Shown: positions 5,427 to 49,586 of the stretch, in pieces
Layout of the letters: every line of letters starts with the position of its first letter
Position numbering within the stretch: the first letter of the stretch is position 1
Origin: Acidimicrobiales bacterium
Lineage (GTDB): Bacteria > Actinomycetota > Acidimicrobiia > Acidimicrobiales > Palsa-688
NCBI GenBank assembly: GCA_965276635.1
Contig: CBDIBC010000002.1
Span: 102,528-166,527 of the forward strand
Direction of reading: 5' to 3'
DNA length: 64,000 nt
The notes under the pieces: model-generated
Seen by the model: only the letters and a program-made list of their open reading frames with translations
What the model was told of the DNA's origin: nothing
Databases searched by the model: none
Position numbers and translations under genes: made by a program

Positions 5427-5735
5427 GACCCGGGCGGTCCCGTCCTGCTCGTCGACCGGCTGGACCATGACGGTGACCTCGCCAGCGTCGAGAACGCGGC
5501 TGCCGCCATGGGGACCGTGCTCGCCATCGTCCCTGCCCCTATCGGAGACGACCGTAACCACGACCTTGCCGATCGGAACTGGACCGTGGCCTCCCAGTGG
5601 TACCTCGGCCAGCCCAACTCGATGCAGTAGCGATCGGCTACCGGGGGTCTGGGCGCCCGGGTCCCTCAGAACAGCTCATCGAGCAGGGCGGAGCTGAGCC
5701 TGTCGTCAGCTGTCGCGACGCGGCGAACCGACGGC

Positions 5736-6329
5736 TCACCACACACCTGGGAACAGCCGCCGGCGTCCGGCAGTGAAGCGGCGGTAGGGTTCCCCGAGGG
5801 CGTCGAATAACGTTCGCTCCTCGACATGGATGCGGACGATGAGTCCCACAGTCGGAACGACGACGAGCACGGCGAGCGAGAGCCAGTTCCCCAGCGCCAA
5901 GCCCATGCCCACGAAGGTGATGATCATCCCGCTGTAGGAGGGATGCCGCACCCATCGGTACGGTCCGCGATCCACCACCGTCTGGCCCGATTGGACCCGG
6001 ACATCGACGGTGAAGAACCGTCCGAGCAGGGTGATGGCCCACTGGCGGATGACGATGCCAGCCCACATCAAAATCAGGCCCACCACGAAGGCGGCCCATC
6101 GCCAGAGCGTGATCGCCGCGCCCGGGATACCGCTCGCAAGCAGGAAGGACCCGACGATCCCGGCGGCGACCGACGCGATCACCACCGCCAGGCTGCCGCG
6201 ATCCGAACGCAACCCCTGCCGGTTCAGCAAGCTCCGGAACCGGGTGCGTTGTTCCGGGAGCACGAACCCGCCGACCGTCAAATAGAAAGCGATCTTCGCT
6301 GCGGTGTCGGTGTACGGCAGCGGCGTCAC
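5736..6329 (-). CDS. isoprenylcysteine carboxyl methyltransferase (ICMT/PEMT) family membrane methyltransferase
   Basis: Multiple TM helices; RHPSYSG motif; EERTLFDALGEPY. Confidence 0.75.
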   Translation of the reverse strand: MTPLPYTDTAAKIAFYLTVGGFVLPEQRTRFRSLLNRQGLRSDRGSLAVVIASVAAGIVGSFLLASGIPGAAITLWRWAAFVVGLILMWAGIVIRQWAITLLGRFFTVDVRVQSGQTVVDRGPYRWVRHPSYSGMIITFVGMGLALGNWLSLAVLVVVPTVGLIVRIHVEERTLFDALGEPYRRFTAGRRRLFPGVW

Positions 6330-13276: not shown

Positions 13277-13930
13277 CTACGCCGGACCGTTGGGGAACTT
13301 CAGCAGCGACCCGGCGTCGACCCGCAGCTGTTGGCCGGTCACGTAGCGCGACTCGTCGGAGGCCAGCCAGAGCACCGCATTCGAGATGTCGACCGGCTCT
13401 ACGTAGGGGATCGGCATGGCCTGGAAGTACGTGAACGCCGGCAGGGCGTCCTCGCGCGTCGGGTTCTCCAGGTCGGGGCGGAACGTCTTGTAGAGGCCTT
13501 CGTTGTTGAGCAGGTGCGTGTTGCAGTTTGTCGGGTGGATGGCATTGGCGCGAATGAAGCGGGGGGCGAGGTGAAGGCGATCTGCTCGGTGTAGCCGATC
13601 AACGTCTTCTTCGACCACGAATAGCCCGCACCGCAGCGCAGATCAACTTCTCACCGCCGAGCGCCGCGGGGCAGACGTTTCTCAGCACCTTGAAGCAGTA
13701 CGACACTTCCTTCACCCGCGACATCCCGGACTTCGGGTTGCTCGGGTCGGCGATCTCGGTCCAGTTGGCCGCCTACGGGCTCAGCTTGGCCGGAGCCAAT
13801 CCGACGTCGTCGATGTTCATCTCCAAGCTGCGCCAGGTGGACAGCTGGGACGACAACGGGCTGCTGTCCGACAACCCCGCCCACTTCACCGGGTTCGGCA
13901 ACGCCGCCAGCTCGGGCCGCGAGGCTGTGC
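13277..13930 (-). pseudogene. short-chain dehydrogenase (carveol-DH-like SDR) remnant, C-terminal part intact, upstream part frameshifted
   Basis: IRANAIHPTNCNTHLLN..PIPYVEPVDISNAVLWLASDESRYVTGQQLRVDAGSLLK; no Rossmann N-terminus in frame. Confidence 0.5.
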
Positions 13931-15489: not shown

Positions 15490-16782
15490 ATGCGAGTCGA
15501 GGACATGGTCCTCATTAGCGTGGACGACCACACCGTGGAGCCACCGTCGATGAGCGAGTACTTCCGTGAGCATGTTCCGGCGAAGTACCGCGATCGGGTG
15601 CCACGGGTGATCCGGCGCGACGACGGCAGCGACGCCTGGCTGATCGAGAGCAAGGAGATCGCCACCTTCGGGCTCAACGCCGTCCAGGGCCGCCCGCGAG
15701 CGGCGTGGGGATCGGACCCGGCCAGCTTCGACCAGGTCCGGCCCGGCACATACGAGATCCACGCCCGAGTCCAGGACATGGACGCCAACGGAGTGCTGGC
15801 GTCACTGTGCTTCCCGTCGTGGCCGGGCATCGCCGGCCAGTTCTTCGTGGCGAGCGAGGACAAGGACTTTGCCGCAGCGATGGTTCGCGCCTACAACGAC
15901 TGGCACCTCGACGAATGGTGTGGCGCCTACCCGGGGCGCTTCGTGCCCCTGGCCATCTCTGGCTTCCCTCTCGGCGGGGAATGGATGGCCGGCGAGATCC
16001 GTCGGATGGCCGAGCGCGGCTGCCACGCCGTGTCGTTGCACCCCGAGACCTACCGGGCCGATCACCCCGACTACCACGGCGACGAGTGGGACGACGCCTG
16101 GAAGGCCTGCGAGGACACGGGCACGGTCATGGTGTTCCACTTTGGTGGCATGCCCACGTTCATGCCCCGCTCGCCGTTCTCTGTCATCCCCCACGCCATG
16201 CCGTTCCAGACGGCGATCTTCGCCGCCGAACTGCTGTGGTCGCCGATCATGCAGCGCTTCCCCGGCGTCCGCATGGCCTTGGCCGAGGGCGGCATCGGCT
16301 GGATTCCCTACTTCCTCGAGAAGGCCGACTTCGTCTACGACCACCACCGCCTGTGGACCGGGGCCGACTTCGGCGACAAGCTGCCATCGCAGGTGTTCCG
16401 CGAGCACGTGCAGGGCTGCTTCATCGACGACCTGACTGGCCTCCGGGCGCGCGACGTGATCGGTATCGACATGATCACCTGGGAATGCGACTACCCGCAC
16501 TCCGACTCGACGTGGCCGCAGGCCCCTGAGGTGCTCATGAAATCCCTGGAGACGGCCGAGCTCAGCGACGAGGAGATCGACAAGGTCACCTGGTCCAACG
16601 CCGCCCGTTGGTACCAGTTCGATCCCTTCGAGCACCGGACGCGCCAGGACGCCACCGTCGGGGCGCTGCGGGCGCGGGCCACCGACGTAGACACGACGGC
16701 GCGTGAGTACGGCAATCTCGACCACTCTTACGGGCTCGACATGAACGCCAACCAGTTCATGGATCGCGCCAACCGGCCCTGA
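15490..16782 (+). CDS. amidohydrolase family 2 (ACMSD/LigW-like metal-dependent hydrolase)
   Basis: MRVEDMVLISVDDHTVEP..; strong GGGGAGGG RBS. Confidence 0.8.
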   Translation: MRVEDMVLISVDDHTVEPPSMSEYFREHVPAKYRDRVPRVIRRDDGSDAWLIESKEIATFGLNAVQGRPRAAWGSDPASFDQVRPGTYEIHARVQDMDANGVLASLCFPSWPGIAGQFFVASEDKDFAAAMVRAYNDWHLDEWCGAYPGRFVPLAISGFPLGGEWMAGEIRRMAERGCHAVSLHPETYRADHPDYHGDEWDDAWKACEDTGTVMVFHFGGMPTFMPRSPFSVIPHAMPFQTAIFAAELLWSPIMQRFPGVRMALAEGGIGWIPYFLEKADFVYDHHRLWTGADFGDKLPSQVFREHVQGCFIDDLTGLRARDVIGIDMITWECDYPHSDSTWPQAPEVLMKSLETAELSDEEIDKVTWSNAARWYQFDPFEHRTRQDATVGALRARATDVDTTAREYGNLDHSYGLDMNANQFMDRANRP

Positions 16783-17165: not shown

Positions 17166-17665
17166 ATGACAGGAACGCACGAGTCCAGACTGCTTATCGA
17201 CGCCCCGCTCGGCGACGCCGTCAGATGGCCGGCCGAGTACATCGACGAGTATCCCTGGGAGCGCGACCTCGGTGTCGCCGACGTTTTCGGCCAGAAGACA
17301 CGGCGCAAGGTGGTCAAGGAGGCCGCTGGCGTGGTCGGCGCGATCGTCCCGTGGAATTATCCGTTCGAGGTGGCGCTCAACAAGTTGGGTCCGGCGCTGG
17401 CAACCGGCAACACCGTGGTCCTGAAGGCTGCGCCCGACACACCGTTCAACGCCACCCGGATCGGGCGGTGTCCTCGAGCGACATCGAGCGCGCCCTGAGC
17501 GTGGCCTCCCGTATCCGGGCCGGGGTGCTCACCATCAACGGATCCAGCTGGTACGGCCCGGCATCACCCTTCGGTGGGTTCAAGCAGAGCGGTGTCGGTC
17601 GCCAGAACGAGTTCGAAGGGTTCGAGCAGTACACCGAGACCAAGACCTACGGGCTTCCGGCCTAG
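17166..17665 (+). pseudogene. aldehyde dehydrogenase remnant with about 250-aa internal deletion
   Basis: [27 protein letters not shown] joined directly to the C-terminal IRAGVLTINGSSWYGPASPFGGFKQSGVGRQ across a frame change; strong RBS before ATG 17166. Confidence 0.6.
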
Positions 17666-19048: not shown

Positions 19049-20212
19049 TCAGCTCCGGGTGAGGACCATTGCGCCGCACTGGGGGCCGTGGGCGTTGGCT
19101 ACCACGGCCACCTTGGCGTGGGGGACCTGGCGTCTACCGCACTCGCCTCGCAGCTGCAGTACCGCCTCGGTGAGAAAACCCAGACCGTGCAGGCGCCCCT
19201 CGGTCAGTTGACCTCCGTGGGTGTTGAGCGGAAGGCTGCCGCCGGGGCCGATGCGCTTGCCGTTGTCGACCCAGTCACCGAACTCCCCGATACCGCAGAA
19301 TCCGAGGGCTTCTATCCAGGAGATGGTGATGTGGGTGAAGCCGTCGTAGAGCGCGGCCACGTTGACGTCCCGGACGCTGACCGACGCGTCGCACCACAAC
19401 CGCTTCGCACACTGACGGGTGCCCCCGAAGAGGAGGTCATCGGGGAACGTCCAGTCAGGGGTGCGGCCGGTCCCGTAGGCGATGCTGTCGATGAGCACGG
19501 CCGGCTTCGCCAGGTCGGCGGCTCGTTCCGCAGTCGTCAACACTGCGGCGCAGGCCCCGCTGACTGGGTAGTCGCAGTCGAGAAGGACCAGCGGTTCGGC
19601 CACCGGACGCGAGGCCAGGTAGTCGTCCATGGTGATGGGGTCGCGCAGCACGGCCCGTTCGTTGCCGGCCGCCCATCTCCTGGCGTTGACGGCAATGTGG
19701 CCGTAGTCCTCGTTCGAGCCGCCCAGCTCGGCGATGCGGCGTTGCTTGCGCATGCCCATCGACTGGATGATCCCGCCCGCCAGGCCGTAGGGGGCGGTGA
19801 ACTGCTCGTGGCCGCCGGCCGGCTGGCGCTCGGTGAGCACCGCCCCCTGATGGCCGGCGGCACGGGTGATGGTCCGATACACCAGAACCGTGTCGCACGC
19901 GCCGGAGGCGATGGCCATCGCGGCATCCAAGGCGCCCGCCAGCCCGGAGGGGCCGCTGCCCATGATGTCGTTGAAGACGTGGAGGTTGTCGATGCCGAGC
20001 AGTTTCTGCGCGCTGATGGCCGTGGGTGAGTCCCCCCGGCCGCCGAACTGGTACTCGACGATCCCGTCCACGTCGGCAGGGGTGAGGCCGGCGTCCGTGA
20101 GCGCGCCGCGGCATGACGTCAAGGTCATGCTGCGGATGTCGGGCGCACCTGACCGAGCGATGGGAGAGTAGCCCACGCCGGCGATGGCGACGGGCCGGGA
20201 CAGGCGGCTCAT
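19049..20212 (-). CDS. thiolase-like lipid-transfer protein (Ltp2/SCP-x type)
   Basis: MSRLSRPVAIAGVGYSPIAR..; ATGA overlap with the upstream DUF35 gene. Confidence 0.8.
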   Translation of the reverse strand: MSRLSRPVAIAGVGYSPIARSGAPDIRSMTLTSCRGALTDAGLTPADVDGIVEYQFGGRGDSPTAISAQKLLGIDNLHVFNDIMGSGPSGLAGALDAAMAIASGACDTVLVYRTITRAAGHQGAVLTERQPAGGHEQFTAPYGLAGGIIQSMGMRKQRRIAELGGSNEDYGHIAVNARRWAAGNERAVLRDPITMDDYLASRPVAEPLVLLDCDYPVSGACAAVLTTAERAADLAKPAVLIDSIAYGTGRTPDWTFPDDLLFGGTRQCAKRLWCDASVSVRDVNVAALYDGFTHITISWIEALGFCGIGEFGDWVDNGKRIGPGGSLPLNTHGGQLTEGRLHGLGFLTEAVLQLRGECGRRQVPHAKVAVVANAHGPQCGAMVLTRS

Positions 20213-20616
20213 GCCGGGGTCCCGGCCAGGCGGAACTGCGGCAGGCTCCACTCGCCTCGAACCTCGAACGTCACCTCGACCGGAGCCCCGCCCTTGACGT
20301 CCTCCGGCGCACAGCCGACGACGTTGGTGAGGATCCGGGCGGAGGGGTCCTCCTCGAGCTCGACCAGTGCCAGCACGAACGGCACCTCGAAGGCGGGGTC
20401 GAAGGTCTGGCGGGCGACGGTGAAGGCGTAGATGTGGCCCCGGCCGCTCACCTCAGCCGGCGTCAACGGGTCGGCCCCACACATCTGACACACCACGGTG
20501 GGCGGGTACTGGTACCGGCGACACGCATCGCACCGCTGCACCAGCAGCTTCCCTTGGCGGGCGCCTTCCCAGTAGAACTCCGACACCGCGTCGGGTTGCG
20601 GCACGGGCTTGTCCAT
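20209..20616 (-). CDS. DUF35 OB-fold / zinc-ribbon protein (Ltp2 partner)
   Basis: MDKPVPQPD..LLVQRCDACRRYQYPPTVVCQMCG..; RBS CAGGAGAAACAC. Confidence 0.75.
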   Translation of the reverse strand: MDKPVPQPDAVSEFYWEGARQGKLLVQRCDACRRYQYPPTVVCQMCGADPLTPAEVSGRGHIYAFTVARQTFDPAFEVPFVLALVELEEDPSARILTNVVGCAPEDVKGGAPVEVTFEVRGEWSLPQFRLAGTPA

Positions 20617-20742
20617 GTGTTTCTCCTGACTGCTTCGAGCCACCGGACGGCAGCGTATCGGTCCGTCCGCAGCGGACACCTCGGTAGTCCGTTGCTACCG
20701 TCCTCGACAGGGGCCAACGAGCTCAGGAAGAGGACTGGGAAA

Positions 20743-21361: not shown

Positions 21362-22560
21362 ATGACGAAGCCCTTGGCCGGCGTGAAAGTCGTCGAGCTC
21401 TCGATGTGGGCCTACGTGCCCTCGGCCGGCGCGGTGCTGGCTGACTGGGGAGCGGACGTCGTCAAGATCGAATCCCCCTCGGGCGATCCCATCCGGGGCC
21501 TGGTGAACGCCGGAGTCGGGCCTATGGCGGATATCACCTTCACCTGGGAGATCTTCAACCGCAACAAGAAGGCCATCGCTCTGGACCTCACCAGGCCCGA
21601 GGCGCAAGAGATCGTCTACATGCTGGCCGCAGACGCCGACGTGTTCCTCACCAGCCTTCTGCCACCGGCGCGCAAGAAGCTGGGCGTGGACCTGGCCAGG
21701 ATCCGGGAGGCCAACCCCGGCATCATCTACGCCTCCGGGACCGGTCAGGGAGCCCGGGGCCCCGAAGCCGATCGCGGCGGCTACGACTCCATCACCTTCT
21801 GGTCGCGCGGTTCTATAGCCGCAGCGGTCACCCCTCCAGAGCACCCACGACCGGTGGGCATGCCGGCCGGGGCGTTCGGCGACTCCATCTCTGGCATGGC
21901 CCTCGCCGGCGGGGTGGCCGCTGCGCTCGTGCAGAAGGCTCGAACAGGCGAGGCGTCGGTGGTCGACGGCTCGCTGCTCGGGACGGCCATGTGGGCCATG
22001 CAGATGGGGATCGTCGGCGCCGCCGTGGCAGCTGCCGCCCCCTCGCCAGCCAAGCTCGACGTCGCCCCGGTGGCCAACCCACTGGTTACCAGCTACCGAA
22101 CCTCCGACGACCGGTGGGTGGCCTTGTTGCATGCTGCAGCGCGATGCCTACTGGGACCGGCTGTTCGCGACCGTCGGGCGGTCCGACATCCTCTCCGATC
22201 CCCGGTTCCAGACCCGGCAGACCGCACCGCCAACGGTGATGCTGCGGTAGCCGAGCTGGAGACGACGTTCGCCGAGCACCCACTGGCTCACTGGCTAGAG
22301 GTCCTGCCTGCCAGAAGGGGCAATGGGACGTGGTCCGGCTGGTATCCGAGGTTGGGTCTGACCCGCAGGCGGTCGCCAACGGCTTCATTCAGGACGTGGG
22401 CTACGGGGAGGACCGTTCATTGCCGATTGTCGCCAATCCCGTTCAGTTCGACCGGGCTCCGCCGGAGCTGCGGCTGGCGCCGACCTTAGGGGAGCACACA
22501 GACGCCGTCCTGGCGCCTCTCGGTATGGACGACGAGGCGATCCGAGGTCAAGATCAGTGG
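21362..22560 (+). pseudogene. CaiB/BaiF family III CoA-transferase, at least three frameshifts
   Basis: MTKPLAGVKVVELSMWAYVPSAGAVLADWGADVVKIESPSGDP in one frame; DAYWDRLFATVGRSDILSDPRF in a second; DRSLPIVANPVQFDRAPPELRLAPTLGEHTDAVL in a third. Confidence 0.6.
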
Positions 22561-22696
22561 CGGAGTCGTATAGCCCCGGGCAGTCGTGTCCAGGGCCCGC
22601 ACCCTCGGGTGCCAATGACAAGGAGCTCGTTCGAGAGCGACTACCCGCACTCGGACGGCAACTGGCCCACACCCGCAAGCTGCTGGCCGAGGCCGC

Positions 22697-23674
22697 TCAT
22701 GAAGCGGAGTTGATCGATCGTCGCTCGACGGCGTCGGCGAACTGACGCCAGTCCTCGGCGTAGCGGCGCGCCTGGTCGGCCACCTCATAGATCCGGCTGA
22801 GAGGGACCGCGCCGATGTACTCGCACCATCGGGCCGCCGTGCCTGCGGCGTCGAACCAGGAGGCGAAGTCGGCGCTGTCGTCGCTCGACCGGCACGCTGT
22901 GTCCCCGGTCCACGCCGGCTCGGATCGCGTCGGCGGGCTCCACGGGGCCGACACCTCCCTCTGGTGGGAGCGGCGAGGGTCCTCGCCGCGCTCGATGCGG
23001 TTTCGCACCGATCGGACGGTTTCCGGAGCGGCCCCCACCTCCTGCGCGATCTGGCGCAGGGAGGCCCTCGGGCTGGTAGCGATGGCGTCGGCAATCCGAG
23101 CTCGCACCGCCGTCGCGTGGACCGGCCGCACCCGCCGGTCCCGGCCGACACGTACGTGGGGTTCCGGCCTGCTGTCCCCCGCCCGCACCGCAGCCCTCAG
23201 TCGACCCACGGTCTTGTGGTCCAACGCGCAGATCCGTCCGATGGCCCGATCGGATCGCTCTCGTGAGGTCGCGAGCAGGCGCCTCGCCGCTGCGCTGCGC
23301 TCGGCGATGGACAGCGGCAGTCCGTGCTGGACGTTGGCCTGTACTGCCTCGATGAAGGCCTCGTCGTCTGTGCCGTGAAAGAGGCGGGCGTTGATGGTCG
23401 TCAGCCGGAGCTGGCGCGCAGCCACCACTCGGTGCATCCCATCGATGACCTGGAGGGTGGTTCCGGACACCAGGATGGCCGGCCACCGGTCGGGCACCTC
23501 AGCCAGCGCCAATACGTGCTCCCGCTGCAAGTCGCGTGCCCGCAGCGAGGGTCTATGGCGCAGGTCCTCCACCCTGAGTGTCGTCTCGTCGCTGTGAGAG
23601 GCGAGACGCAGGGGCACCGGGACCCGGGCCGCGTCCTGATCGATGGTGTGGCCGGTAGCTGCGGCGGTGGTCAC
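22697..23674 (-). CDS. StrR-family (ParB-like N-terminal domain) pathway-type transcriptional regulator
   Basis: VEDLRHRPSLRARDLQREHVLALAEVPDRWPAILVSGTTLQVIDGMHRVVAARQLRLTTINARLFHGTDDEAFIEAVQANVQHGLPLSIAERSAAARRLL. Confidence 0.7.
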   Translation of the reverse strand: MTTAAATGHTIDQDAARVPVPLRLASHSDETTLRVEDLRHRPSLRARDLQREHVLALAEVPDRWPAILVSGTTLQVIDGMHRVVAARQLRLTTINARLFHGTDDEAFIEAVQANVQHGLPLSIAERSAAARRLLATSRERSDRAIGRICALDHKTVGRLRAAVRAGDSRPEPHVRVGRDRRVRPVHATAVRARIADAIATSPRASLRQIAQEVGAAPETVRSVRNRIERGEDPRRSHQREVSAPWSPPTRSEPAWTGDTACRSSDDSADFASWFDAAGTAARWCEYIGAVPLSRIYEVADQARRYAEDWRQFADAVERRSINSAS

Positions 23675-24068
23675 GTGGAAGGTCCCCCCAAATCACGCCA
23701 GTGTCGCTGTAGTTGTACTTCGCGCGAGCAACCACATGCTACGGTAAAGTCAGTCGACGTCTAAACTTTCCCTGGTGCGCGCCGTCGACCGTGCAGCTAT
23801 CGTGTCGGTACCACTTGTTGTATATGTGCGCTCCGGGGGGGTCATGCTGTGCGACGGAGCATGCAAGCGCCTGGCCGCGCCCTGCGTCGTGGAGCCAGCC
23901 GGGCACAAGTTGTTCCCGGTCCGCCTACCTGGATGGACGAACGACACGAGGGAGACAGAGACATGGCAGGTCACTTGGAGGGCAAGGTCGCCTTCGTCAT
24001 CGGTCAGCAGACTCGCCGTCGACGCCGGATCGCCACTCGAGCTCCCCGGCCGGCCGGTATAGATCCGA

Positions 24069-25275
24069 GATGAGCGCCATCGAGGAGCAGCCCGTCACCA
24101 CGGCGGGGACGACCTGCCCGTTCGTTCGCTACGAGGAGGTCAACGTAGGCAAGGCCGACGCCCTGTGGCACTTCGCCAACTTCGACCGCAAGCGGGAGCA
24201 GGCTCGAATCCACTTCGGCGATGCCGACGGGCACGAGTTCTGGATGCTGACGACGATCGAGGATATTCGGACGGCTCTCCAGCAGCCCGCCACCTTTTCC
24301 AGCCGCTCGGTGCAGCCCAACGATCCTGATCCCCCCTACCAGTGGATCCCTGAGATGCTCGACCCGCCGCTGCACACCCAGTGGCGCCAGCTGCTCGGGC
24401 CGACCTTCACCCCAGCGGCGATCGCCAAGCTCGAGCCCAAGGTCCGCCAGCGGTTCAGTGAGATCCTCGACGAGGTGGCAGCCAGGGGCCGCTGTGATTA
24501 CGTCGCCGACGTCGCGCTGTGCTTCCCCAACACGATCTTCATGGAGATCATGGGCCTACCGGTGTCGGACGCCGCCCAGTTCCAGGCGTGGGAGACTGCA
24601 ATCCTGCACGGGAGCGTCGGCAAGGAGGCGTCGTACAACGCCATGATGGAGGTTGTCGGCTACTTCGGCCAACTGGTCGCCGAGCGGCGCAAGACCCCTC
24701 GCGACGACCTGGTGAGCGCCGCGCTGTCCTACCGCATCGACGGCGAGTTGGTCTCCGACGAAGACCTCCTCAGCCTGTGCCTGCTCCTCTTCATGGCCGG
24801 CCTCGACACGGTTGCCATGCAGCTGTCGTACTCGATGCTGCACTTGGCCACCCACGCCGACGACCGCCGCCGGCTGATGGCGGAGCCAATCCTCTGGCCT
24901 ACCGCCATCGAGGAGTTCCTTCGCTACTACTCCTTTGTCACCCCAGGCCGAAAGATCGTGCAGGACGGTGAGTTCCAGGGCTGTCCGATCAGGGCCGGCC
25001 AGATGGTCTACCTCCCGCTGGTCTCGGCCAACCGCGATCCGCAGGAATTCTCTGACGCCGGCAAGGTCCTGATCGACCGGGAGGTCAACCGGCACATAGC
25101 CTTCGGTGTTGGACCCCACCGGTGCCTCGGCACCCACCTGGCTCGCCAGGAGCTGCGCATCGGTCTGGTCGAGTGGCATGCCCGCATCCCGGACTACCGT
25201 CTCGCCGAGGGGTCCGCGATCGTCGAGCATGGTGGGCAGGTCGGCCTCGACAACCTGGACTTGGTCTGGAACTGA
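24069..25275 (+). CDS. cytochrome P450
   Basis: MSAIEEQPV..; FGVGPHRCLGTHLARQEL; EEFLRYYSFV. Confidence 0.9.
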
Positions 25276-33071: not shown

Positions 33072-33632
33072 CTAGCCGCCCGTGTAGGCGATGACCACGC
33101 GACGGTTCTGCTGCCGGCCGCCAGGATTGTCCGAGCCGTCGGGGTTGGTGTTGGGCGCCACGGGGTCGGCCTTGCCCAAGCCCTGAGCCTGGTAGGCGAG
33201 GGCACCGTTGCCGACGTTGGCCTGCAAGAAGGCCTGCACCGACGCGGCGCGGTTCTGGGAGAGGGTTTGGTTGTAGCTGTCGGTGCCGACGGAGTCGGTG
33301 TAGCCGTTGATCGTCACCGTGCCGGCCCCAGAGGACTTGAGCGTGCTGACGACATCGCCGAGCACGGCCTGGGAATCAGGCGAGAGGGTGGCCACGTTGA
33401 AGGCGAAGAGGATGTCGCTGCCCACGTTGAAGGTGTCGGGAGCGGGCTGGGTGGGGGCGATGCTGGTGATCCGAGGCTGCAGGCTCACGATCCGGGGCTG
33501 CAGGGTGACAACTCGCGGCGTGCCCGGTGTCGGCACCGAGCTTGCCCCCGCCGGGGAGGCCGCCGCCAGTGCGGCGCCGATGGCTGCGGCGCGCCGCGGC
33601 CGGGATCGCCACCGTCGAGGTCGGTCGGTCAT
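33072..33632 (-). CDS. OmpA-family protein with signal peptide
   Basis: MTDRPRRWRSRPRRAAAIGAALAAASPAGASS signal; TINGYTDSVGTDSYNQTLSQNRAASVQAFL...RRVVIAYTGG. Separate from the kinase only if the 8-C run at 33699-33706 is really 7 C. Confidence 0.6.
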   Translation of the reverse strand: MTDRPRRWRSRPRRAAAIGAALAAASPAGASSVPTPGTPRVVTLQPRIVSLQPRITSIAPTQPAPDTFNVGSDILFAFNVATLSPDSQAVLGDVVSTLKSSGAGTVTINGYTDSVGTDSYNQTLSQNRAASVQAFLQANVGNGALAYQAQGLGKADPVAPNTNPDGSDNPGGRQQNRRVVIAYTGG

Positions 33633-35338
33633 CGGCCCAGCGCAACGTTGGCGAAGGACCCCATGCCGCTGACGAACGACACCGTGGTGACATCCGCAGG
33701 GGGGGGCGGCCACCAGCGCGGCTTCGTAGTTGGTCACCGTCTGCTGCTCGCTGTCGAAGTTCTGGCCGCCGAGGACGCTGCAAAGACACGTGGTGTCCTT
33801 GGCCGGATCCGCCATGAACGTCTCGTACTCCTTGAGTCCGGCCGGGTCGAGCAGGGCGACACCGCTGACGGTGTGGCCAAACGCGCCAGCAGTGGCGAGG
33901 TTGAAGCTCAGTCCCTCCTCCACGTTGGTCTCCGTGCCGATGCTCGCGGCCGACGGATCGACCTTCAGGGCGGATACGACCAGCACCGCGCCCGGCTGGG
34001 CCCGCTGCACGACATAGAGCTGCAAGGTGATCCCGGCGATGGAGGACGCCATGCTGGCGATGGGCTGGTCGGGCACCTTGGTGACGACGGGGACGGAGGT
34101 GCCGGCGAGCTGGAACGTCATCGTCCGGCCCGATCCGGTGGTGGCGGGCTGGGCGCCGACGATAGGTGCGGACCCCCCGGTGCGGCGGGTCTTGCCGTTC
34201 CCCTGAGTGGCGAAGAGGCCGATGGCCACCAGCGCGATGACCGCAGCCACGGCCCCGGCCGAGACTGCGAAGCGGCGGCGAAGGTGACGCACGGATGTTC
34301 GGTCAGGCGCTGGCGGACACACCGGCTCCGCCGTCGCGACAGGTTCGGGCCGCAAGGTGGAGGGCGGGGCGGGCTGGGGTACGGCGGTTCCCTCCATGTC
34401 CAGGGCCGGTGGCGCGGCGGCGAGCGCGTCGGTGGCCGCAGCGACGAACGCGCCCGCGGTGGCGTACCGCTGGCCCCGCTCCTTTGCCGTCGCCTTCGCC
34501 AGCACCTCGTCGAGGGTGGGAGGCAGGTTCGATCCGCCGCCGCTCAGCGTCGGCACCGGTTCGTTGACCGTGGCCCACAGCCGGGCGGCGGTGTCGGCGC
34601 GGTGGAACGGGACCCGGCCGCTGAGGGCGGTGTAGAGCACGGCACCGAGGGCGTAGATGTCGGCTTCCCTGCCAACCTCCTCACCGCGGACCTGCTCGGG
34701 TGCCACATAGTCGACCGTGCCGATCCAGCCCTGGCTGCCCGTCAGGCCCGGGTCGAACCGGCCCGCTTGACCAGTCCGAAGTCACCCAGGTAGGCGTGCT
34801 CGCCACCCTCGCGCCACTCAACCAGGATGTTGGCCGGCTTGACGTCGCGGTGGAGCAGCCCGGCGGCGTGTGAGGCATCGAGGGCCGACGCGACCTGCGC
34901 CACAAGACCGAGCGCCCGGCGCGGCTCGAGCGCCCCCTCATCGTCGATGATGGACCGCAGATCGGCGCCTTCGATCCACCGCATAGTCACGTACAGCAGC
35001 CCGCCCTCCTCGCCCGCGTCGATGATGGGAACGACGTGGGGATGCTCGAGCGAAGCCGCCAGTCGGCATTCCTGGGCGAAGCGCTGACGAAAGCGAGGAT
35101 CCTCGGCGAACCCAGGGGCGATCACCTTCAACGCCACCGTGCGGGCCAGGGCCAGATGGGTGGCTCGGCAGACCACCCCCATCCCGCCTCGGCCGGCGAT
35201 CTCCTCGATTCGGTAGCCGCCGAAGGTCATCCCGGGGCGCAGCTCCGCTGCAGGCCGCTCCGACCCGTCAGGCCATCCCCGCGCATCGTCTGTCATAGCT
35301 GAGAGTATGACAACTGCCCCGATCCGGAGGGAACCCAC
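33633..35338 (-). CDS. transmembrane Ser/Thr protein kinase (frame change near 34745; C-terminus depends on the 33699-33706 C-run)
   Basis: GGMGVVCRA, HRDVKPANILV, DFGLVKR, then TVDYVAPEQ in another frame after gacccgggcctg; TM helix FAVSAGAVAAVIALVAIGLFA. Confidence 0.65.
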
Positions 35339-38131: not shown

Positions 38132-38752
38132 TCAGCCCTGCAGCACGGCCGGGTCCCGTAGCACCGCCTGGTCGTGGGGCACTGGGTCGGTCATCTCGGC
38201 GACTCGCCGGTCGAACGCCGCGCAGAGTAGGTGGACGGCGACCTGGTGTACCTCTTGGACGGTGGGCGTGCCGGCGGCGACGATCGCGACGGTGTCGTCG
38301 CTGGCGGCGGCCAGCGGATTGGGGGCCGGCCCGGTGAAAGACCACACCACCATCCCAGCTGCCCGAGCGGCGTCCGCTGCGGCGACGACGTTCGGCGAAC
38401 GGCCGGAGGTGGAGAACGCGATCAGCACGTCGTCGGGACGTCCGTGGGCGCGCACCTGGCGGGCGAACATCTCCTGCGGGCCGTAGTCGTTGGTTAGGGC
38501 GGTGAGCGCGGAGCCGTCGACGTGGAGTGCGAGAGCGCTGAACGGGGGCCGCTCCTCGAGGTACCGGCCGACCATTTCTGACGCCAGGTGCTCGGCGTGG
38601 GCCGCGCTGCCGCCGTTGCCGACCGTGAGCAGCCGGCCGCCGTCGACCAGGCGGTCGGCCAGGCGCTTGCCCCAGGCCTGTACCTGTGTCAGCGCTGTCC
38701 GCTCGAAGTGATCGAGGGCGTCGCGCAGGGCGTCGAGGTGGGTGCCGGTCAT
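38132..38752 (-). CDS. gmhA: D-sedoheptulose-7-phosphate isomerase
   Basis: SIS domain; LTVGNGGSAAHAEHLASE..IAFSTSGRSPNVV. Confidence 0.85.
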   Translation of the reverse strand: MTGTHLDALRDALDHFERTALTQVQAWGKRLADRLVDGGRLLTVGNGGSAAHAEHLASEMVGRYLEERPPFSALALHVDGSALTALTNDYGPQEMFARQVRAHGRPDDVLIAFSTSGRSPNVVAAADAARAAGMVVWSFTGPAPNPLAAASDDTVAIVAAGTPTVQEVHQVAVHLLCAAFDRRVAEMTDPVPHDQAVLRDPAVLQG

Positions 38753-39819
38753 CGGTGTGTTCCTTCGCTGGTGGTGGCCGCCTTCACCGGCCGATCGGCG
38801 ACGTCGGCCAAGTAGGCGATATCAGCGGGGGCGGTGACCTGAGCGAGCGCGGCGACGACGTCGTCGACGCCGATGGCGGCCAGGCCGGGGTCCATTAGGG
38901 TGGCGTGGGGGTCGCCGCGCCGGCCGGCCCAGAGCGCCACGTGCTGGGGGCGCCCGGGTGGGGGGCCCCACTCGTCGGGCGGCACTGGGCCGTAGAGGGT
39001 CACCGACGGGGTGCCCGAAGCGAACGCCAGGTGGGCGACGCCAGTGTCCCCGCTCACCACCCGCCCCGCAGCCTGCACGGCGGCGATGAGCCCGTCGAGG
39101 TCCGTCGAACCGGCCAGCACCGGCGCCGGGACCGCGGCACGGCGGGCTACGTCGAGGGCCAGGTCCCGCTCAGCGACGGACCCGGTGAGCACCACCCGGC
39201 GCCCGGCGCGCGCCTCGGCGTCGAGGACGGCGGCGAAGCGCTCCGAGGGCCAGCGCCGGCTTGGCGCTCCGGCACCGGGATGGATGATCGTGGCGCCTAC
39301 GGCCGTCGGCGGCGCCGCGACCGGCGACCGGCCAAGCGCCAGGTCGGCCCGATCGGCGGGGATGCCGTTGGCGTCGAGCAGCCGGCACCAGCGGGCGACC
39401 TCGTGCTCACCCGGCCGCCAGTCCGGGAAGCCCCGGGTCTCGGGAATCGCCGGGTGGGCGAAGGCGATGAGCCGCTCTGGGCGGAGCGCCAGGAGGAGGG
39501 GCTGGCTGCCCGGGCCCCGCCCGTGCAGGTCGACGGCGACGTCCGGGAAGGCAAGCGCCGGGTCGAGGGACGTCAGCTCGTGCCTGTCGCTCAGGGCGTC
39601 CGCCAGGCCCTCGCGACGGACGAGCGGCCAGAAGGCAGCCGGGGCGACCAGGGTGAGGTGGTAGTCGGCGAAGTGGCGGCGGAGGGCCCGGAGCGCAGGG
39701 ATGCCGGTCAGCAGGTCGCCGAGGTTGAGCGCCCGCAGCACTACGACTCGGGGGCGCCCCGTCAAAGCCGGCGCCCCGTCGACGTCCGGCACCGGCGTCG
39801 ACGTCCGGCACCCGGTCAC
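38749..39819 (-). CDS. glycosyltransferase family 9 (heptosyltransferase)
   Basis: VVVLRALNLGDLLTGIPALRAL..TGSVAERD..VVSGDTGVAHLA; GTGA overlap with the hldE stop. Confidence 0.75.
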   Translation of the reverse strand: MTGCRTSTPVPDVDGAPALTGRPRVVVLRALNLGDLLTGIPALRALRRHFADYHLTLVAPAAFWPLVRREGLADALSDRHELTSLDPALAFPDVAVDLHGRGPGSQPLLLALRPERLIAFAHPAIPETRGFPDWRPGEHEVARWCRLLDANGIPADRADLALGRSPVAAPPTAVGATIIHPGAGAPSRRWPSERFAAVLDAEARAGRRVVLTGSVAERDLALDVARRAAVPAPVLAGSTDLDGLIAAVQAAGRVVSGDTGVAHLAFASGTPSVTLYGPVPPDEWGPPPGRPQHVALWAGRRGDPHATLMDPGLAAIGVDDVVAALAQVTAPADIAYLADVADRPVKAATTSEGTHR

Positions 39820-41237
39820 GTCCGGCCCCCGGCGACCTCGAGTAGGCCGGTGGTCGACCGACCGGAGAGGTAGGGGAGGACGACGACCTGGCCGCCCCAT
39901 TCGGCGAGCACCGTCTCCTCGGGCAGCTGCCGGGCGGAGTAGTCGCCGCCCTTGGCGAACACGTGGGGCCGGAGGCGACGCAGCGCCGTCACCGGCGAGT
40001 CCTCCCCGAAGACGATGACGTCGTCGACGCACCCCAGCGCCCGCAGCATGGCGACGCGGTCGGCTTCGGACACGACTGGCCGTCCTGCCCCCTTGAGGCG
40101 GCGAACCGACTCGTCACTGTTGACCGCCACGATCAGGCAGTCGCCGAGCCGGCGCGCGCCGGCGAGCAGCGAGATGTGGCCGGCGTGGAGCAGGTCGAAG
40201 CACCCACCGGCGACGACCACTCGGCCGCCAGCCGCCCGGATGCCGGCGGACAGCCCGTCGGCACCACCTTCGCAAGTCGGGCCGGCATTGGCCGGGGGAA
40301 CGGGTCGCGGTCCGGAGGCGACGGGGCTCGACATCGTCGCTGCGCCGCCGGCAGCGACGAACCGACCGGCACCCTCGACCGCCGCGGTCACGGCCTCGGT
40401 CAGCATCGCACCGCCGAGGATGGCGCTGGCCACGGCGGCGGCGAAGGCGTCGCCCGCACCGCAGGTGTCCCCGTCGACAGGGGTGACCGGGGCGACGAGA
40501 GGGGCCCCGGTGCCGGCGACGAGCAGGGCGCCGTCGGCGCCGAGGGTGGCCGCCACCGCACCCACCGACCAGTGGCCGAGTGCAGTCCGGGCGAGGGCGG
40601 TCAGCTCCCGCAGATCGTCGCCGGGCCAGGCGGGGCCGGTCCCGACGGTAGGCATTATCCCGGCGACCGCGGCCCTCAACTCCGCCCGGTTGGGGGTGAC
40701 GACGGTCACGCCCGGGACGGGGACCGGCCCGCGAGGGTGGGGATCCCAGACCGTGGGCATGCGGCGGTCGGCGACGGCAGCGCGCACGCCCGGGTGGGCG
40801 GCCATCCCCCGGCCGTAATCGGAGACCAGCACACTGCCGGCCCGCGCGAGGAGGTCGCTGAGGCGATCGGACAGCGGGGCAGTCGGAGCCTCGAGGCCGC
40901 CCCGATCGAGGCGGAGCAGCGGGTGGCTGCCGGCGCGGAAGCGGACCTTCTCCGGGGTGGCGCCGCCAGCGGGCAGGGCCACCACCTCGACCCCGAGGTC
41001 CCCGAGGAGCCGGCGGACCTCGGCGCCGGCCTCGTCGTCGGCCAGGGCGGTGAGGAAAACGACGTCGTGGCGGCCGGCGGCGAGCGATGCGGCCAACGCC
41101 GCGCCTCCGGCCCGGACCACCGCGCCATGCTCGTCGAGCACCGGGACGGGGGCGTCGGGGGCCACCCGTTCGATCGACCCGTGGACGTCGCGGTCGAGGA
41201 GGGCGTCACCGACGACGACCAGGGTCGGGCCGGTCAC
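39816..41237 (-). CDS. hldE: bifunctional D-beta-D-heptose 7-phosphate kinase / heptose 1-phosphate adenylyltransferase
   Basis: N-terminal ribokinase-like part (GAGDAF); C-terminal GGCFDLLHAGHISLLAGARRLGDCLIVAVNSDESV. Confidence 0.85.
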   Translation of the reverse strand: MTGPTLVVVGDALLDRDVHGSIERVAPDAPVPVLDEHGAVVRAGGAALAASLAAGRHDVVFLTALADDEAGAEVRRLLGDLGVEVVALPAGGATPEKVRFRAGSHPLLRLDRGGLEAPTAPLSDRLSDLLARAGSVLVSDYGRGMAAHPGVRAAVADRRMPTVWDPHPRGPVPVPGVTVVTPNRAELRAAVAGIMPTVGTGPAWPGDDLRELTALARTALGHWSVGAVAATLGADGALLVAGTGAPLVAPVTPVDGDTCGAGDAFAAAVASAILGGAMLTEAVTAAVEGAGRFVAAGGAATMSSPVASGPRPVPPANAGPTCEGGADGLSAGIRAAGGRVVVAGGCFDLLHAGHISLLAGARRLGDCLIVAVNSDESVRRLKGAGRPVVSEADRVAMLRALGCVDDVIVFGEDSPVTALRRLRPHVFAKGGDYSARQLPEETVLAEWGGQVVVLPYLSGRSTTGLLEVAGGRT

Positions 41238-42439
41238 CGGGCCACCGACGGGAGGACGGCGCCGACCATCTCGTCGTAGACCGAGGCGGTGGCAGCGGCG
41301 ACCCGGGGCCAGCCGTAGCGGTTCCGGGCGCGGGCCATCCCGGCCGCACCGAGCCGGCTGCGCGCCGCCGGGTCGGCGAGCAGGGCGGCAAGCACCGCCG
41401 CCAGCCGGTCGGGATCACCGGGTGGAACGTGGACACCGGTGACGCCATCGACGACCGACTCCTTCAGGCCACCGACCGCCGCGGCCACGACCGGCACCCC
41501 GCACGCCATGGCCTCGAGTGGCACGATGCCGAAGGGCTCGTAGGTCGGCACGCAGACCACCGTGTCGGCGGAGCGCAGCAGCGAGGGGAGTGCCCCGCGT
41601 GTCACCTGCCCGAGGAACCGCACCCGGTCGGCGACGCCGTGGGCCTGGGCGGCGTCGCCGAGGCGCACCACGTCGGGGTCGGTCTCGAGATCGTGCCGTG
41701 GGCCGCCGCCGGCGATCAGCAGCTCGGTGCCGGGCAGCGTTGCCAGCGCGGCGATGACATCGCCGACACCCTTGCGCTCGACGAGGCGACCGACCACAAC
41801 CAGGCGGTGCAGAGCGGAGCGGGCGGCCACCGGCCCGCCGGGTCGGAAGCACTTCAGGTCGACGCCGCAGGGCACGACCCGCAGCCGTTCGGCGGGCGCC
41901 CCGAGGCGCCGGAGCTCACCGACCTCGTCGTGGCAGGTGGCGATGACCCGGTCGGCCTCGGCCATGATCCACTCCTCGGTCCGCAGGCGGTCCGGGGGGC
42001 TCGTGTCCTCTGCCCCCTGGTGGCGGCGCTTGACGGCGCCGAGGGCGTGAAAGGTCTGCACGACCGGCACCCCGACCGGCCGAGCGGCGGCCAGCGCGGC
42101 GAGCCCGGACATCCAGAAGTGGGCGTGGACCGCGTCCGGGGGCCGCTTTTGCCACGTCTCGGCCAGTCCGTCGGCGAAGGCCTCCATGTAGGGGCGCAGG
42201 TTGTCCTTGGCGACGGCCTGGGGCGGCCCGGCATCGACGTGGTGGACCCGCACCCCGCCCTCCGCGGTCACCCAGCGGGGCAGGCCGGGGTCGTCGCGGC
42301 GGGTGTGGACGGTCACCTTGTGGCCGAGGTCGGCGAGGGCCCGGGCGAGCGAGCCGACGTGGACGTTCTGACCGCCGGCGTCCGCTCCGCCGAGCGCGGC
42401 AAGGGGGCTGGCGTGCTCAGACACCATCGAGATCAGCAT
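41234..42439 (-). CDS. glycosyltransferase family 4
   Basis: MLISMVSEHASPLAALGGADAGGQNVHV..EPFGIVPLEAMACGVPVV; strong GGAGGTGA RBS. Confidence 0.8.
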   Translation of the reverse strand: MLISMVSEHASPLAALGGADAGGQNVHVGSLARALADLGHKVTVHTRRDDPGLPRWVTAEGGVRVHHVDAGPPQAVAKDNLRPYMEAFADGLAETWQKRPPDAVHAHFWMSGLAALAAARPVGVPVVQTFHALGAVKRRHQGAEDTSPPDRLRTEEWIMAEADRVIATCHDEVGELRRLGAPAERLRVVPCGVDLKCFRPGGPVAARSALHRLVVVGRLVERKGVGDVIAALATLPGTELLIAGGGPRHDLETDPDVVRLGDAAQAHGVADRVRFLGQVTRGALPSLLRSADTVVCVPTYEPFGIVPLEAMACGVPVVAAAVGGLKESVVDGVTGVHVPPGDPDRLAAVLAALLADPAARSRLGAAGMARARNRYGWPRVAAATASVYDEMVGAVLPSVAR

Positions 42440-43365
42440 GTGGTCACCTCCAGGAGCTGGCGGTCCCAGTCGGCGAGGAACCGTCCGAGCCCGAAGCGTT
42501 CGACGGCGTAGTCCCGGGCGGCGCGTCCGGCGGCGGCGGCCTCCGCGGGCTCGTGCACGAACCGGCGCACTCCTTCGACCACCGTGTCGAGCCGGTTGGA
42601 CACCACGCCGGCCGAGCGTGGGACGACCTCGGCGGCCTCGGTGGTGGCCAGGGCCACGACCGGGAGGCCCAGCTGCATGGCCTCGATAAGGCTCAGCCCG
42701 AGCGAGGTCCACCGGTTGGGGTGGAAGTAGACCCGGCGTCGGGCCATCTCGGCGTGTAGCTCGGCCTGGGGCACGTCGCGCCCGCCGAAGGGCTCGGACC
42801 GCATCCCGAACAGGTCGACGGCGCTCGCGGCGCGCACCGGTGCGAGGAGGTCGGTCCCGGTCACCCGGCCCCGCCGGCCGGGATCATTGATGACGGCGAC
42901 GGCGGCGGCCAGTTCGCCGGTGTACCGGTGCCCTGGGTCGACGATGCCGTGCTCGATCACCGACGTCGGGGCTTTGCCGCTGTCCCAGAACAGCTGGTTG
43001 AACCACGTCACGTGCACGACGGGGATGTCCGTCCGGTCGGCCAGGGGGTGCACCATCGACGCTACGGGTCCATCCGGCGCGTTGTGCTCGAGGTACACGG
43101 CCGGCAGGTCGCGCCCGGCGCGCCGGCCGAGCCACTGCTGGACGAGGTCGAACTCCTCCCGGCGCTGCAGGACCACGACGTCGACGTCGGTGGCGTGCAG
43201 CTGGTCGGGGGTCAGCTCCTCGGCCGACGCCGGCCAGTTCCATGTCCGGGCCCGGCCGAGGCCGCCGGGACCCCGGCCCGGCAGGACGGGGAGCAGGTAG
43301 CAGTGAGAGCCCTGCACGAACGCCGTCGTCCACGATCCGTGCACGTGCCAGAGCAGGATCCTCAC
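42433..43365 (-). CDS. glycosyltransferase (GT4-like/GT1 fold)
   Basis: VRILLWHVHGSWTTAF..EPFGGRDVPQAELHAEMARRRVYFHPNRWTSLGLSLIEAMQLGLPVV; GTGA overlap with the upstream stop. Confidence 0.7.
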   Translation of the reverse strand: MRILLWHVHGSWTTAFVQGSHCYLLPVLPGRGPGGLGRARTWNWPASAEELTPDQLHATDVDVVVLQRREEFDLVQQWLGRRAGRDLPAVYLEHNAPDGPVASMVHPLADRTDIPVVHVTWFNQLFWDSGKAPTSVIEHGIVDPGHRYTGELAAAVAVINDPGRRGRVTGTDLLAPVRAASAVDLFGMRSEPFGGRDVPQAELHAEMARRRVYFHPNRWTSLGLSLIEAMQLGLPVVALATTEAAEVVPRSAGVVSNRLDTVVEGVRRFVHEPAEAAAAGRAARDYAVERFGLGRFLADWDRQLLEVTTC

Positions 43366-47688: not shown

Positions 47689-47747
47689 TTTTTGGCCTCC
47701 TGCCTCGCGATGACCCAGCGACAGTGATACCCGGCGCCAACCAAGTG

Positions 47748-47779
47748 AATCCTCTGCAGATAATCACCTGCAGAGGATT
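47748..47779. promoter_or_regulatory. perfect 12-bp inverted repeat (candidate operator) in the divergent promoter
   Basis: AATCCTCTGCAG-ATAATCAC-CTGCAGAGGATT between the carbamoyltransferase (minus) and GT2 (plus) starts. Confidence 0.5.
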
Positions 47780-47789
47780 TACTAGGCCA

Positions 47790-48659: not shown

Positions 48660-48670
48660 GCGCCGGCGGT

Positions 48671-49585: not shown

Positions 49586-49586
49586 G

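Follow-up and report, generated by a model that had tools for sequence, protein, structure and literature searches.

An intact StrR-family regulator gene among gene relics in a catabolic neighbourhood of an Acidimicrobiales metagenome contig

A stretch of 64,000 nucleotides (nt) from a metagenome-assembled contig of an Acidimicrobiales bacterium, which is called the window throughout this text, carries on its minus strand a gene for a StrR-family regulator (hereafter, the regulator), divergent from a cytochrome P450 gene. The interpretation considered probable here is that the regulator is an intact StrR-family factor sitting on rearrangement scars in a catabolic neighbourhood, that its pairing with the P450 is secondary, and that the GTCGAC hexamers and the inverted repeat found between both genes are chance features. 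The setting of the regulator would be a neighbourhood of lipid, terpenoid or sterol-type catabolism, where the P450 and a convergent short-chain dehydrogenase/reductase (SDR) gene would be what is left of an operon whose intact form, seen in a relative, has the order aldehyde dehydrogenase, SDR, ferredoxin, P450, P450 and acyl-CoA dehydrogenase (ACAD). The relative's operon comes with a TetR gene and without a StrR-like gene, and the regulator would be a secondary neighbour of the P450. The pairing is taken as secondary because the operon is intact in that TetR-linked relative without a StrR-like gene, and the juxtaposition is taken to have arisen by deletion because the DNA between the two genes is partly a pseudogene. 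Feature coordinates are summarized in Table 1.

The product of the regulator gene belongs with the StrR-like regulators. The open reading frame (ORF) is complete, without frameshift or premature stop, and its GTG start is supported by a G6-N10-GTG arrangement that the relatives keep as GGGGGG-N8-10-start. The StrR signature that the initial annotation had recognised in the minus-strand protein is confirmed, with its motifs exact in 22697–23674 and the homology to StrR extending to full length. The matched StrR-like proteins, from Streptomyces, Micromonospora, Amycolatopsis and others (35–40% identity, and 37–40% for the three named genera; E ~1e-42; query coverage 82–98%), align with it from one end to the other, and one of them (P0105) is annotated as 'streptomycin biosynthesis protein'. 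In the family alignment of 113 proteins, which was also used for a neighbour-joining tree, 14 residues are invariant (R45, D78, G79, R82, N114, L121, R126, S141, D142, R143, R160, R175, T219 and P291), and the regulator keeps all of them. Its codon bias is like that of its neighbours, with a GC content at third codon positions (GC3) of 0.84.

Concerning the fold, the AlphaFold2 model of the regulator (predicted local distance difference test, pLDDT, 85.9) shows the same architecture as that published for StrR, i.e., two short antiparallel beta-strands, then a central tri-helical helix-turn-helix (HTH) and a helical C-terminal region (PMC10886168). In Foldseek searches, the first ~200 residues matched ParB, Noc, KorB, PadC and Spo0J, and more weakly sulfiredoxin and a serine kinase, the E-values for ParB, Noc, KorB, PadC and sulfiredoxin running from 5e-6 to 1e-2. 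The family profile gave a marginal match to the ParB N-domain in the PDB (E 0.04–0.05), while a single-sequence PDB search with the regulator gave no match. In the profile alignment, the DG(M/V)HR motif of the family (DGMHR in the regulator) falls on GERR of ParB; the invariant G79 and R82 correspond to the G and the second R of GERR, R45 to the R of QPR, and N114 to the N of ENLQR. In the StrR family, Met or Val takes the place of the catalytic Glu of GERR (G-M-H-R in the regulator). Pfam and NCBIfam returned only weak HTH matches, including HTH_23 at aa 189–233, as they also do for bona fide StrR-like proteins. Pfam ParBc misses the regulator, which is uninformative because the StrR-like P0105 is missed as well.

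An identity as a partition protein of the ParB/Spo0J type was considered and rejected: GERR is replaced, the C-terminus is StrR-like, the context is catabolic and the E-values are marginal. The regulator does not group with the partition proteins, its likeness to ParB is at fold level only, and no parA partner was seen among the genes neighbouring it. By analogy with the characterised members of its family, the regulator most likely binds as a dimer to an inverted repeat near promoters and activates transcription, unless it is an orphan. The replaced catalytic Glu, together with the residues aligned on the ParB pocket, suggests nucleotide binding without hydrolysis in the StrR family. On the same residues, which align with the CTP pocket of ParB, StrR-type regulators may, though this is unlikely, be nucleotide-gated switches. 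Among the papers searched, none connects the StrR family with catabolism or with CTPase activity.

The P450 is, as initially annotated, real and divergent, and its gene is intact. Its closest homologue (402 aa) is 86% identical, compared to only 56% for the best homologue of the regulator. Dozens of P450 homologues from Acidimicrobiia reach 70–79% identity, and those from Mycobacteriales, Pseudonocardia and Thermomonospora 60–66%. Among solved structures, those of a reconstructed CYP125 ancestor, CYP143, CYP101 and P450cin are nearest to it, all being class-I enzymes of catabolism. Seven loci with P450 orthologues (72–86% identity) were compared, comprising four copies of one arrangement (L064–L067) and three other contexts, and in none of these seven loci, that is, in none of the four distinct contexts, was a StrR-like gene found near the P450 orthologue. 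The order in L064–L067 is TetR, aldehyde dehydrogenase (491 aa), SDR (287 aa), ferredoxin (70 aa), P450 (412 aa), P450 (402 aa, the orthologue) and ACAD (404 aa), beyond which there are a convergent SDR (261 aa) and a CoA-transferase. The genes of the ferredoxin and the first P450 of L064 (about 1.47 kb) and its ACAD gene, which separates the P450 from the convergent SDR there, are absent from the window. The ClC gene, which the initial annotation had tentatively placed with the P450 and an SDR in a small StrR-controlled module, is absent from the relative's cluster. Judging by gene order and sequence identity, the P450 and the convergent SDR are part of a conserved catabolic unit, which in the other loci compared is free of StrR-like genes.

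The DNA immediately upstream of the P450 is what remains of the operon's SDR gene. The initial annotation had noted there a stranded SDR start dissolving into junk; the start is real (MAGHLEGKVAFVIG), while what follows it is the 3′ end of the same gene. The intact orthologue (L064 SDR287), which matches the carveol dehydrogenase of PDB entry 3pxx with E 1e-89, begins MAGRLEGKVAFITG / MAGRLEGKVAFITGAGRGQGR, and the relic agrees with it in 12 of the first 14 residues. Positions 23942–24010 of the window align with L064 7640–7704 (SDR leader and codons 1–15), positions 23997–24069 with L064 8458–8528 (last ~20 SDR codons, stop and 6 nt beyond), and positions 24064–24130 with the end of the first P450 gene and the start of the second one in L064. 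In the relative, ATCACCGG stands at both end points of the deletion (L064 7692 and 8457), which are 765 bp apart. Since 765 bp are 255 codons, the internal deletion with respect to the intact orthologue is in frame; codons about 15–266 are gone, and the relic is left without a complete Rossmann fold and catalytic residues. A 1-nt insertion near 24012–24016 causes a frameshift, and when one base is removed there, an ending ...GQQTRVDAGSPLELPGRPV followed by the stop is restored, the relative ending ...GQQIRVDAGSLLKFPNGPA and stop. The 3′ part of the relic keeps ~75% DNA identity to the orthologue and 73% to a second copy in the window. So, it can be stated that the SDR gene collapsed through a deletion between the ATCACCGG repeats plus a 1-nt frameshift and is a pseudogene.

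The relic may still matter to the P450. Because of the SDR frameshift, the 36-codon ORF that the relic leaves ends at a TGA overlapping the P450 ATG. The P450 lacks its own ribosome site, which makes its translational coupling to this ORF plausible. Transcription of the P450, if any, would have to start in the ~290 nt upstream, and its translation would probably rely on the ribosome site and the 36-codon ORF of the relic.

The gap between the regulator and the P450, given as 394 nt in the initial annotation, measures 395 nt and is indeed AT-richer than the window (GC 0.63 vs. 0.69), with GC 0.57 in the half nearest the regulator. The upstream region of the regulator was compared with those of five relatives in a MAFFT alignment. 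From this comparison, about 23675–23830 is the regulator's own, diverged promoter region, in which the −35/−10-like hexamers are 8 or 14 nt apart, compared to 17 nt in the relatives. Scans of 22400–24300 for sigma-70 promoters and intrinsic terminators found none. The folding of the intergenic region does not exceed that of shuffled sequence (z = 0.65), and its Rfam scan gave no meaningful match, only a far-sub-threshold chance match inside the regulator gene.

Two features of the gap had been proposed as binding sites, and both are at chance level. The GTCGAC pair is present, with its starts 31 nt apart instead of 30 bp, and a third copy follows at 24018; the first copy overlaps the palindrome AGACGTCT. 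It is worth noting that the 64 kb hold 90 copies of GTCGAC, roughly four times as many as mononucleotide composition predicts, that at least two copies are present in 7.6% of all 288-nt windows, and that Markov simulations gave P = 0.01–0.08. The pair is thus at chance level. The inverted repeat at 23843–23863 is also present, as TCATGCT-N9-AGCATGC with 6-bp perfect arms and not as the GCATGCT...AGCATGC first read there. By our own estimate, about two perfect 6-bp inverted repeats (loop of 3–12 nt) are expected by chance in a region of such size and composition, and this one is a chance feature.

Known site types of the family were also compared with the intergenic region. The site of StrR is said to be GTTCGACTG-N11-CAGTCGAAC, reportedly from work of Retzlaff and Distler in 1995. 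The best match to it in the intergenic region has 8 mismatches in 18 positions, and the comparison with the StrR consensus lends the GTCGAC pair no support. The Bbr-type site of the StrR family is GTCCA-N17/18-TGGAC (PMC7852140); GTCCA-N16-19-TGGAC finds its best match in the region with 2 mismatches in 10 positions, at 23912, off the GTCGAC sites. The 31-nt spacing of the GTCGAC pair fits neither the StrR nor the Bbr site type. The absence of sites of known type is compatible with DNA binding by the regulator, as specificity may differ between clades.

The nearest relatives of the regulator (47–56% identity) come from Acidimicrobiaceae, Acidimicrobiales or 'Actinomycetes' metagenome-assembled genomes (MAGs) from soil and from metagenomes. 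In the neighbour-joining tree, the regulator lies inside a 26-member clade (P0001–P0026) with P0008 as its sister, and from the sequences at hand the clade appears so far only in uncultured Acidimicrobiia-type actinobacteria. The scan for related loci covered one genome per species and 63 loci, the nearest at 47–55% identity, the window's own genome being outside the set; in the protein search, the best matches after the regulator itself reach 50–56%. The clade relatives lie in surroundings of catabolic type and not in biosynthetic clusters. Their neighbours include genes for amidohydrolase_2, ACAD, thiolase-like plus ChsH2/DUF35 proteins, family III CoA-transferase, SDR and P450, and further ones for tannase, SnoaL, aromatic hydroxylase, HpcH aldolase, FAA hydrolase and homogentisate dioxygenase. 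A P450 gene was found within 8 kb of the StrR-like gene in 12 of the 63 related loci. In the window, a thiolase-like (Thiolase_C_1) gene and an overlapping ChsH2-type zinc-ribbon/OB gene (19049–20679, minus strand) are 40–47% identical to the pair beside the relatives' StrR-like/LysR genes, their relative orientation being opposite.

A LysR gene lies directly downstream of the StrR-like gene, in the same direction, in six of the seven long-contig relatives (L001, L002, L004, L007, L070 and L071), and in the seventh (L003) it is ~3 kb away. No LysR homologue was found by tblastn anywhere in the 64-kb window, and the sister P0008 is likewise without a downstream LysR gene. The same seven loci (L001–L004, L007, L070 and L071) share a layout about 60–180 nt upstream of their StrR-like genes, with ATCGTTkCC-N5-GGmAACGAyCGTTGGC, then TTGTTC-N17-TAcAAC, and then GGGGGG-N8-10-start. 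The core of the element (AACGATCGTT) is 13 times denser upstream of StrR-like genes than elsewhere in the loci. With a weight matrix built from the operator of the seven relatives, true sites score 21–27 bits and shuffled windows reach 9.5–17 bits; the clade operator is absent from the whole window, where the best score is 14.1 bits (2.9 in the intergenic region). The element ATCGTTkCC-N5-GGmAACGAyCGTTGGC could be the site of either the StrR-like protein or the LysR partner, and if it belonged to the LysR partner, this would explain its absence from the LysR-less window. An inversion was also considered for the locus and rejected, as the CoA-transferase beside the sister P0008 is only 30–43% identical to that of the window and not orthologous.

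The SDR pseudogene is not the only relic of the window. An amidohydrolase_2 relic is wedged between the 3′ ends of the CoA-transferase and regulator genes, and shares a 31-nt direct repeat (81% identity) with an intact amidohydrolase gene, at 16487–16517. The ~1.25-kb piece with the regulator and its promoter has, therefore, truncated genes at both sides. The CoA-transferase gene is split by tblastn into two pieces, and the break adjoins a G4 run; the frameshift could be genuine or stem from a homopolymer sequencing error. The aldehyde dehydrogenase pseudogene consists of two fragments (59–63% identical to L064) joined directly, with about 225 codons missing. The second SDR287-like relic, downstream of another P450 (14157–15380, minus strand), has a frameshift at aa 188–190 and lacks its N-terminal part. 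The genes neighbouring the regulator are ACAD, thiolase-like/ChsH2, GFO/IDH, CoA-transferase, amidohydrolase, P450, SDR, ClC, MarR and GGDEF, and no biosynthetic core genes (polyketide synthase, nonribosomal peptide synthetase, sugar aminotransferase or similar) were found near the regulator in the window. Composition is even across the junctions and the region, and no clear foreign segment was found. A search for long direct or inverted repeats around the regulator found no mobile-element ends, only two relic pairs.

Table 1. Features of the regulator locus and related relics in the window
Feature	Position	Strand or protein	Basis or remark
StrR-family regulator gene, intact, 325 aa, GTG start	22697–23674	−	Translation, homologues, AlphaFold2, Foldseek
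ParB/Srx-like alpha/beta N-domain	about aa 30–116	regulator	AlphaFold2 model
ParB-type first HTH	aa 142–166	regulator	AlphaFold2 model
Beta-hairpin	aa 174–184 (strands E174–176, E182–184)	regulator	AlphaFold2 model
Tri-helical HTH	aa 187–229 (H187–200, H206–213, H217–229)	regulator	AlphaFold2 model
Two long C-terminal helices	aa 265–324 (H265–289, H292–324)	regulator	AlphaFold2 model
Regulator–P450 gap, 395 nt	23675–24069		Sequence
Non-coding stretch	23675–23941		MAFFT with five relatives, sequence reading
G6 ribosome-site-like run	23689–23684	−	Sequence, relatives
TACAAC hexamer	23718–23713	−	Sequence, relatives
TTGCTC hexamer	23731–23726	−	Sequence, relatives
GTCGAC pair	23753–23758, 23784–23789		Starts 31 nt apart; third GTCGAC at 24018
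Inverted repeat CATGCT-N9-AGCATG, 6-bp perfect arms	23843–23848, 23858–23863		Sequence
Carveol-dehydrogenase-type SDR pseudogene	23942–24062	+	DNA alignments with L064 SDR287
SDR relic leader with ribosome site	23942–23962	+	Alignment with L064; GGGAG Shine-Dalgarno
SDR relic codons 1–14, peptide MAGHLEGKVAFVIG	23963–24004	+	Translation
SDR relic original stop TAG	24060–24062	+	Preceded by last ~19–20 codons
36-codon ORF left by SDR relic	23963–24073	+	TGA overlaps P450 ATG (ATGA 24070–24073)
Class-I cytochrome P450, intact, 401 aa	24070–25275	+	PF00067 E 6e-28, ATG start
Convergent SDR, 261 aa	25306–26091	−	84% identity to L064 SDR261; gene order of L064–L067
Amidohydrolase_2 relic, ~45 nt, F-E-S-DYPHSD-GN-WP (FESDYPHSDGNWP)	22627–22668	+	tblastn E 0.02, L064 amidohydrolase aa 331–344
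Family III CoA-transferase, frameshift near 22315–22336	21374–22548	+	Pfam positions 1–302 / 311–366 in two frames
Aldehyde dehydrogenase pseudogene	17196–17644	+	Two fragments, aa 110–200 and 426–484 of L064 orthologue
Second SDR287-like 3′ relic	13280–13629	−	C-terminal ~117 codons, 86% identical to L064 SDR287

The initial annotation had seen in the regulator a pathway-specific activator of a specialised-metabolite cluster, which would bind the GTCGAC pair and control the P450, SDR and ClC genes as the remnant of a module. This is quite improbable. It is true that the regulator is a genuine StrR-family homologue, that the characterised members of the family are cluster-situated activators which often bind their own and divergent promoters (PMC7852140; PMC10886168), that the first GTCGAC lies about where the clade relatives hold their conserved palindrome, and that 12 of 63 related loci have a P450 gene close to the StrR-like gene. 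However, the neighbours are of catabolic type and no biosynthetic genes are present in the window. The P450 orthologues are found elsewhere in the TetR-linked catabolic operon or in unrelated contexts, without a StrR-like neighbour, and ClC is outside the relative's unit. Moreover, the GTCGAC pair is at chance level with a spacing that fits neither site type, and the DNA between regulator and P450 is partly a pseudogene. A different role for the pair would follow if the clade comprised the first StrR-family regulators of catabolic clusters, most of them acting with LysR through the distinct operator, and if deletions had rewired the LysR-less copy of the window onto the terpenoid/sterol-type P450 through a diverged GTCGAC-containing site; this is unlikely, yet less so than the other alternatives. 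It is doubtful, to a degree intermediate between these two, that the regulator is a functionless orphan turning into a pseudogene, cut off from operator and partner genes by the rearrangements. Such an outcome would agree with the relics on both its flanks, with the absence from the whole 64 kb of the operator conserved upstream of seven clade relatives and of the LysR gene that follows in six of seven long-contig relatives, and with the 8- or 14-nt spacing of the −35/−10-like hexamers instead of 17 nt. It agrees poorly with a complete ORF that keeps all 14 residues invariant across the 113 members, has the codon bias of its neighbours and is modelled with high confidence. In addition, as the sister P0008 also has no downstream LysR gene, this lack may be normal for the sub-branch.

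The patchwork could also be an artefact of chimeric joins or sequencing errors in the metagenome-assembled contig, but this is very improbable, and the least probable of the explanations weighed. In its favour, the proteins of the window are in the database only once, on one contig (a large protein search found the exact regulator sequence a single time, on a 386-kb contig in NCBI and ENA), an exact-protein look-up in a contig index did not find the regulator, two of the defects are single-base frameshifts, one of them adjoining the G4 run, and JGI metagenomes, when searched for the junction left by the SDR deletion, yielded only three unrelated chance matches. On the other hand, assembly chimeras do not account for a 765-bp deletion that is precise, in frame and flanked by 8-nt repeats, or for gene relics of 45 nt and relic sequence that has diverged (~75% and 73% identity), and composition is even across the junctions. 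Returning to an intact factor on rearrangement scars as the probable explanation, several points weigh against it. The relative could have gained its ferredoxin, first P450 and ACAD genes, instead of the window having lost them, the direction of events being clear for the SDR only. The MAFFT alignment puts the first GTCGAC opposite the CGATCG box of the relatives, where a diverged operator is possible; the recognition helix of the regulator (PETVRSVRNRI) differs from that of the relatives (PETVRDVRARL). Recruitment of the regulator to the promoter region of the P450 is still conceivable. Loci picked through the P450 in like genomes carry the same catabolic gene families, and the association of the clade with catabolic genes is an apparent one. 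Finally, single-base frameshifts in a MAG contig could be sequencing errors.

Other parts of the window deserve brief mention. The only trace of a mobile element seen in the window is an IS3-type transposase at 52141–52824 on the plus strand, which is truncated and comprises HTH_21 and the first ~60% of the rve integrase core. A cell-envelope glycan cluster extends over 38749–50756, largely on the minus strand, and encodes two GT9 heptosyltransferases, an HldE-like kinase/cytidylyltransferase, GT4 enzymes, a carbamoyltransferase, two GT2 enzymes and a pyruvyl-transferase-like protein; several ORFs listed there overlap, which may reflect start-codon miscalls or frameshifts. The ORF at 33072–34706 (minus strand) encodes a C-terminal OmpA domain; the similarity of the first 49 residues is confined to the final part of a protein kinase domain, and the ORF is possibly a 5′-truncated or frameshifted Ser/Thr kinase.

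Compared to known systems, the regulator is like StrR of Streptomyces griseus, Bbr, Dbv4, Tei15*, AoStrR1 and NovG in its full-length homology, its ParB-like N-domain, the two short beta-strands, the tri-helical HTH and the helical C-terminus, and like them it is probably a DNA-binding transcription factor acting at promoters. Unlike them (35–40% identity), it is hosted by an uncultured Acidimicrobiia-type lineage and not by a streptomycete or rare actinomycete, it has no biosynthetic cluster but catabolic-type genes and relics as neighbours, and its locus lacks both known site types. ParB/Spo0J, Noc and KorB share the N-domain and HTH fold with its N-terminal ~200 residues, while the regulator has an extra beta-hairpin, a second HTH and a different C-terminus. 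The StrR-like/LysR loci (L001–L004, L007, L070 and L071) belong to the same clade (50–56% identity) and resemble the window in the G6 run, the start region and the thiolase-like/ChsH2, amidohydrolase and CoA-transferase neighbours; they differ from it in having mostly an adjoining LysR gene, the conserved element and TTGTTC-N17-TAcAAC. With the L064–L067 operon, the window has in common the P450 (86% identical), the convergent SDR (84%) and the SDR leader and 3′ end, whereas its SDR is reduced to about 100 nt and its aldehyde dehydrogenase is present only as fragments 6 kb away. In L064, the TetR gene (5440–6072) is parted from the SDR by the aldehyde dehydrogenase gene, while in the window the StrR-like gene is immediately upstream of the SDR relic.

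The regulator adds a new, divergent member to a known family, and its context is decayed and unremarkable. A StrR-like gene beside a P450 gene does not suffice to mark a biosynthetic cluster, which calls for caution in annotation; here, the pairing would be a by-product of deletions in a catabolic operon. Two leads, neither of them specific to this window, are a sizeable, unstudied clade of StrR-like proteins in uncultured soil Acidimicrobiia, outside any antibiotic cluster, and the apparent match, from sequence alignment, of the invariant residues of the StrR family to the nucleotide pocket of ParB.

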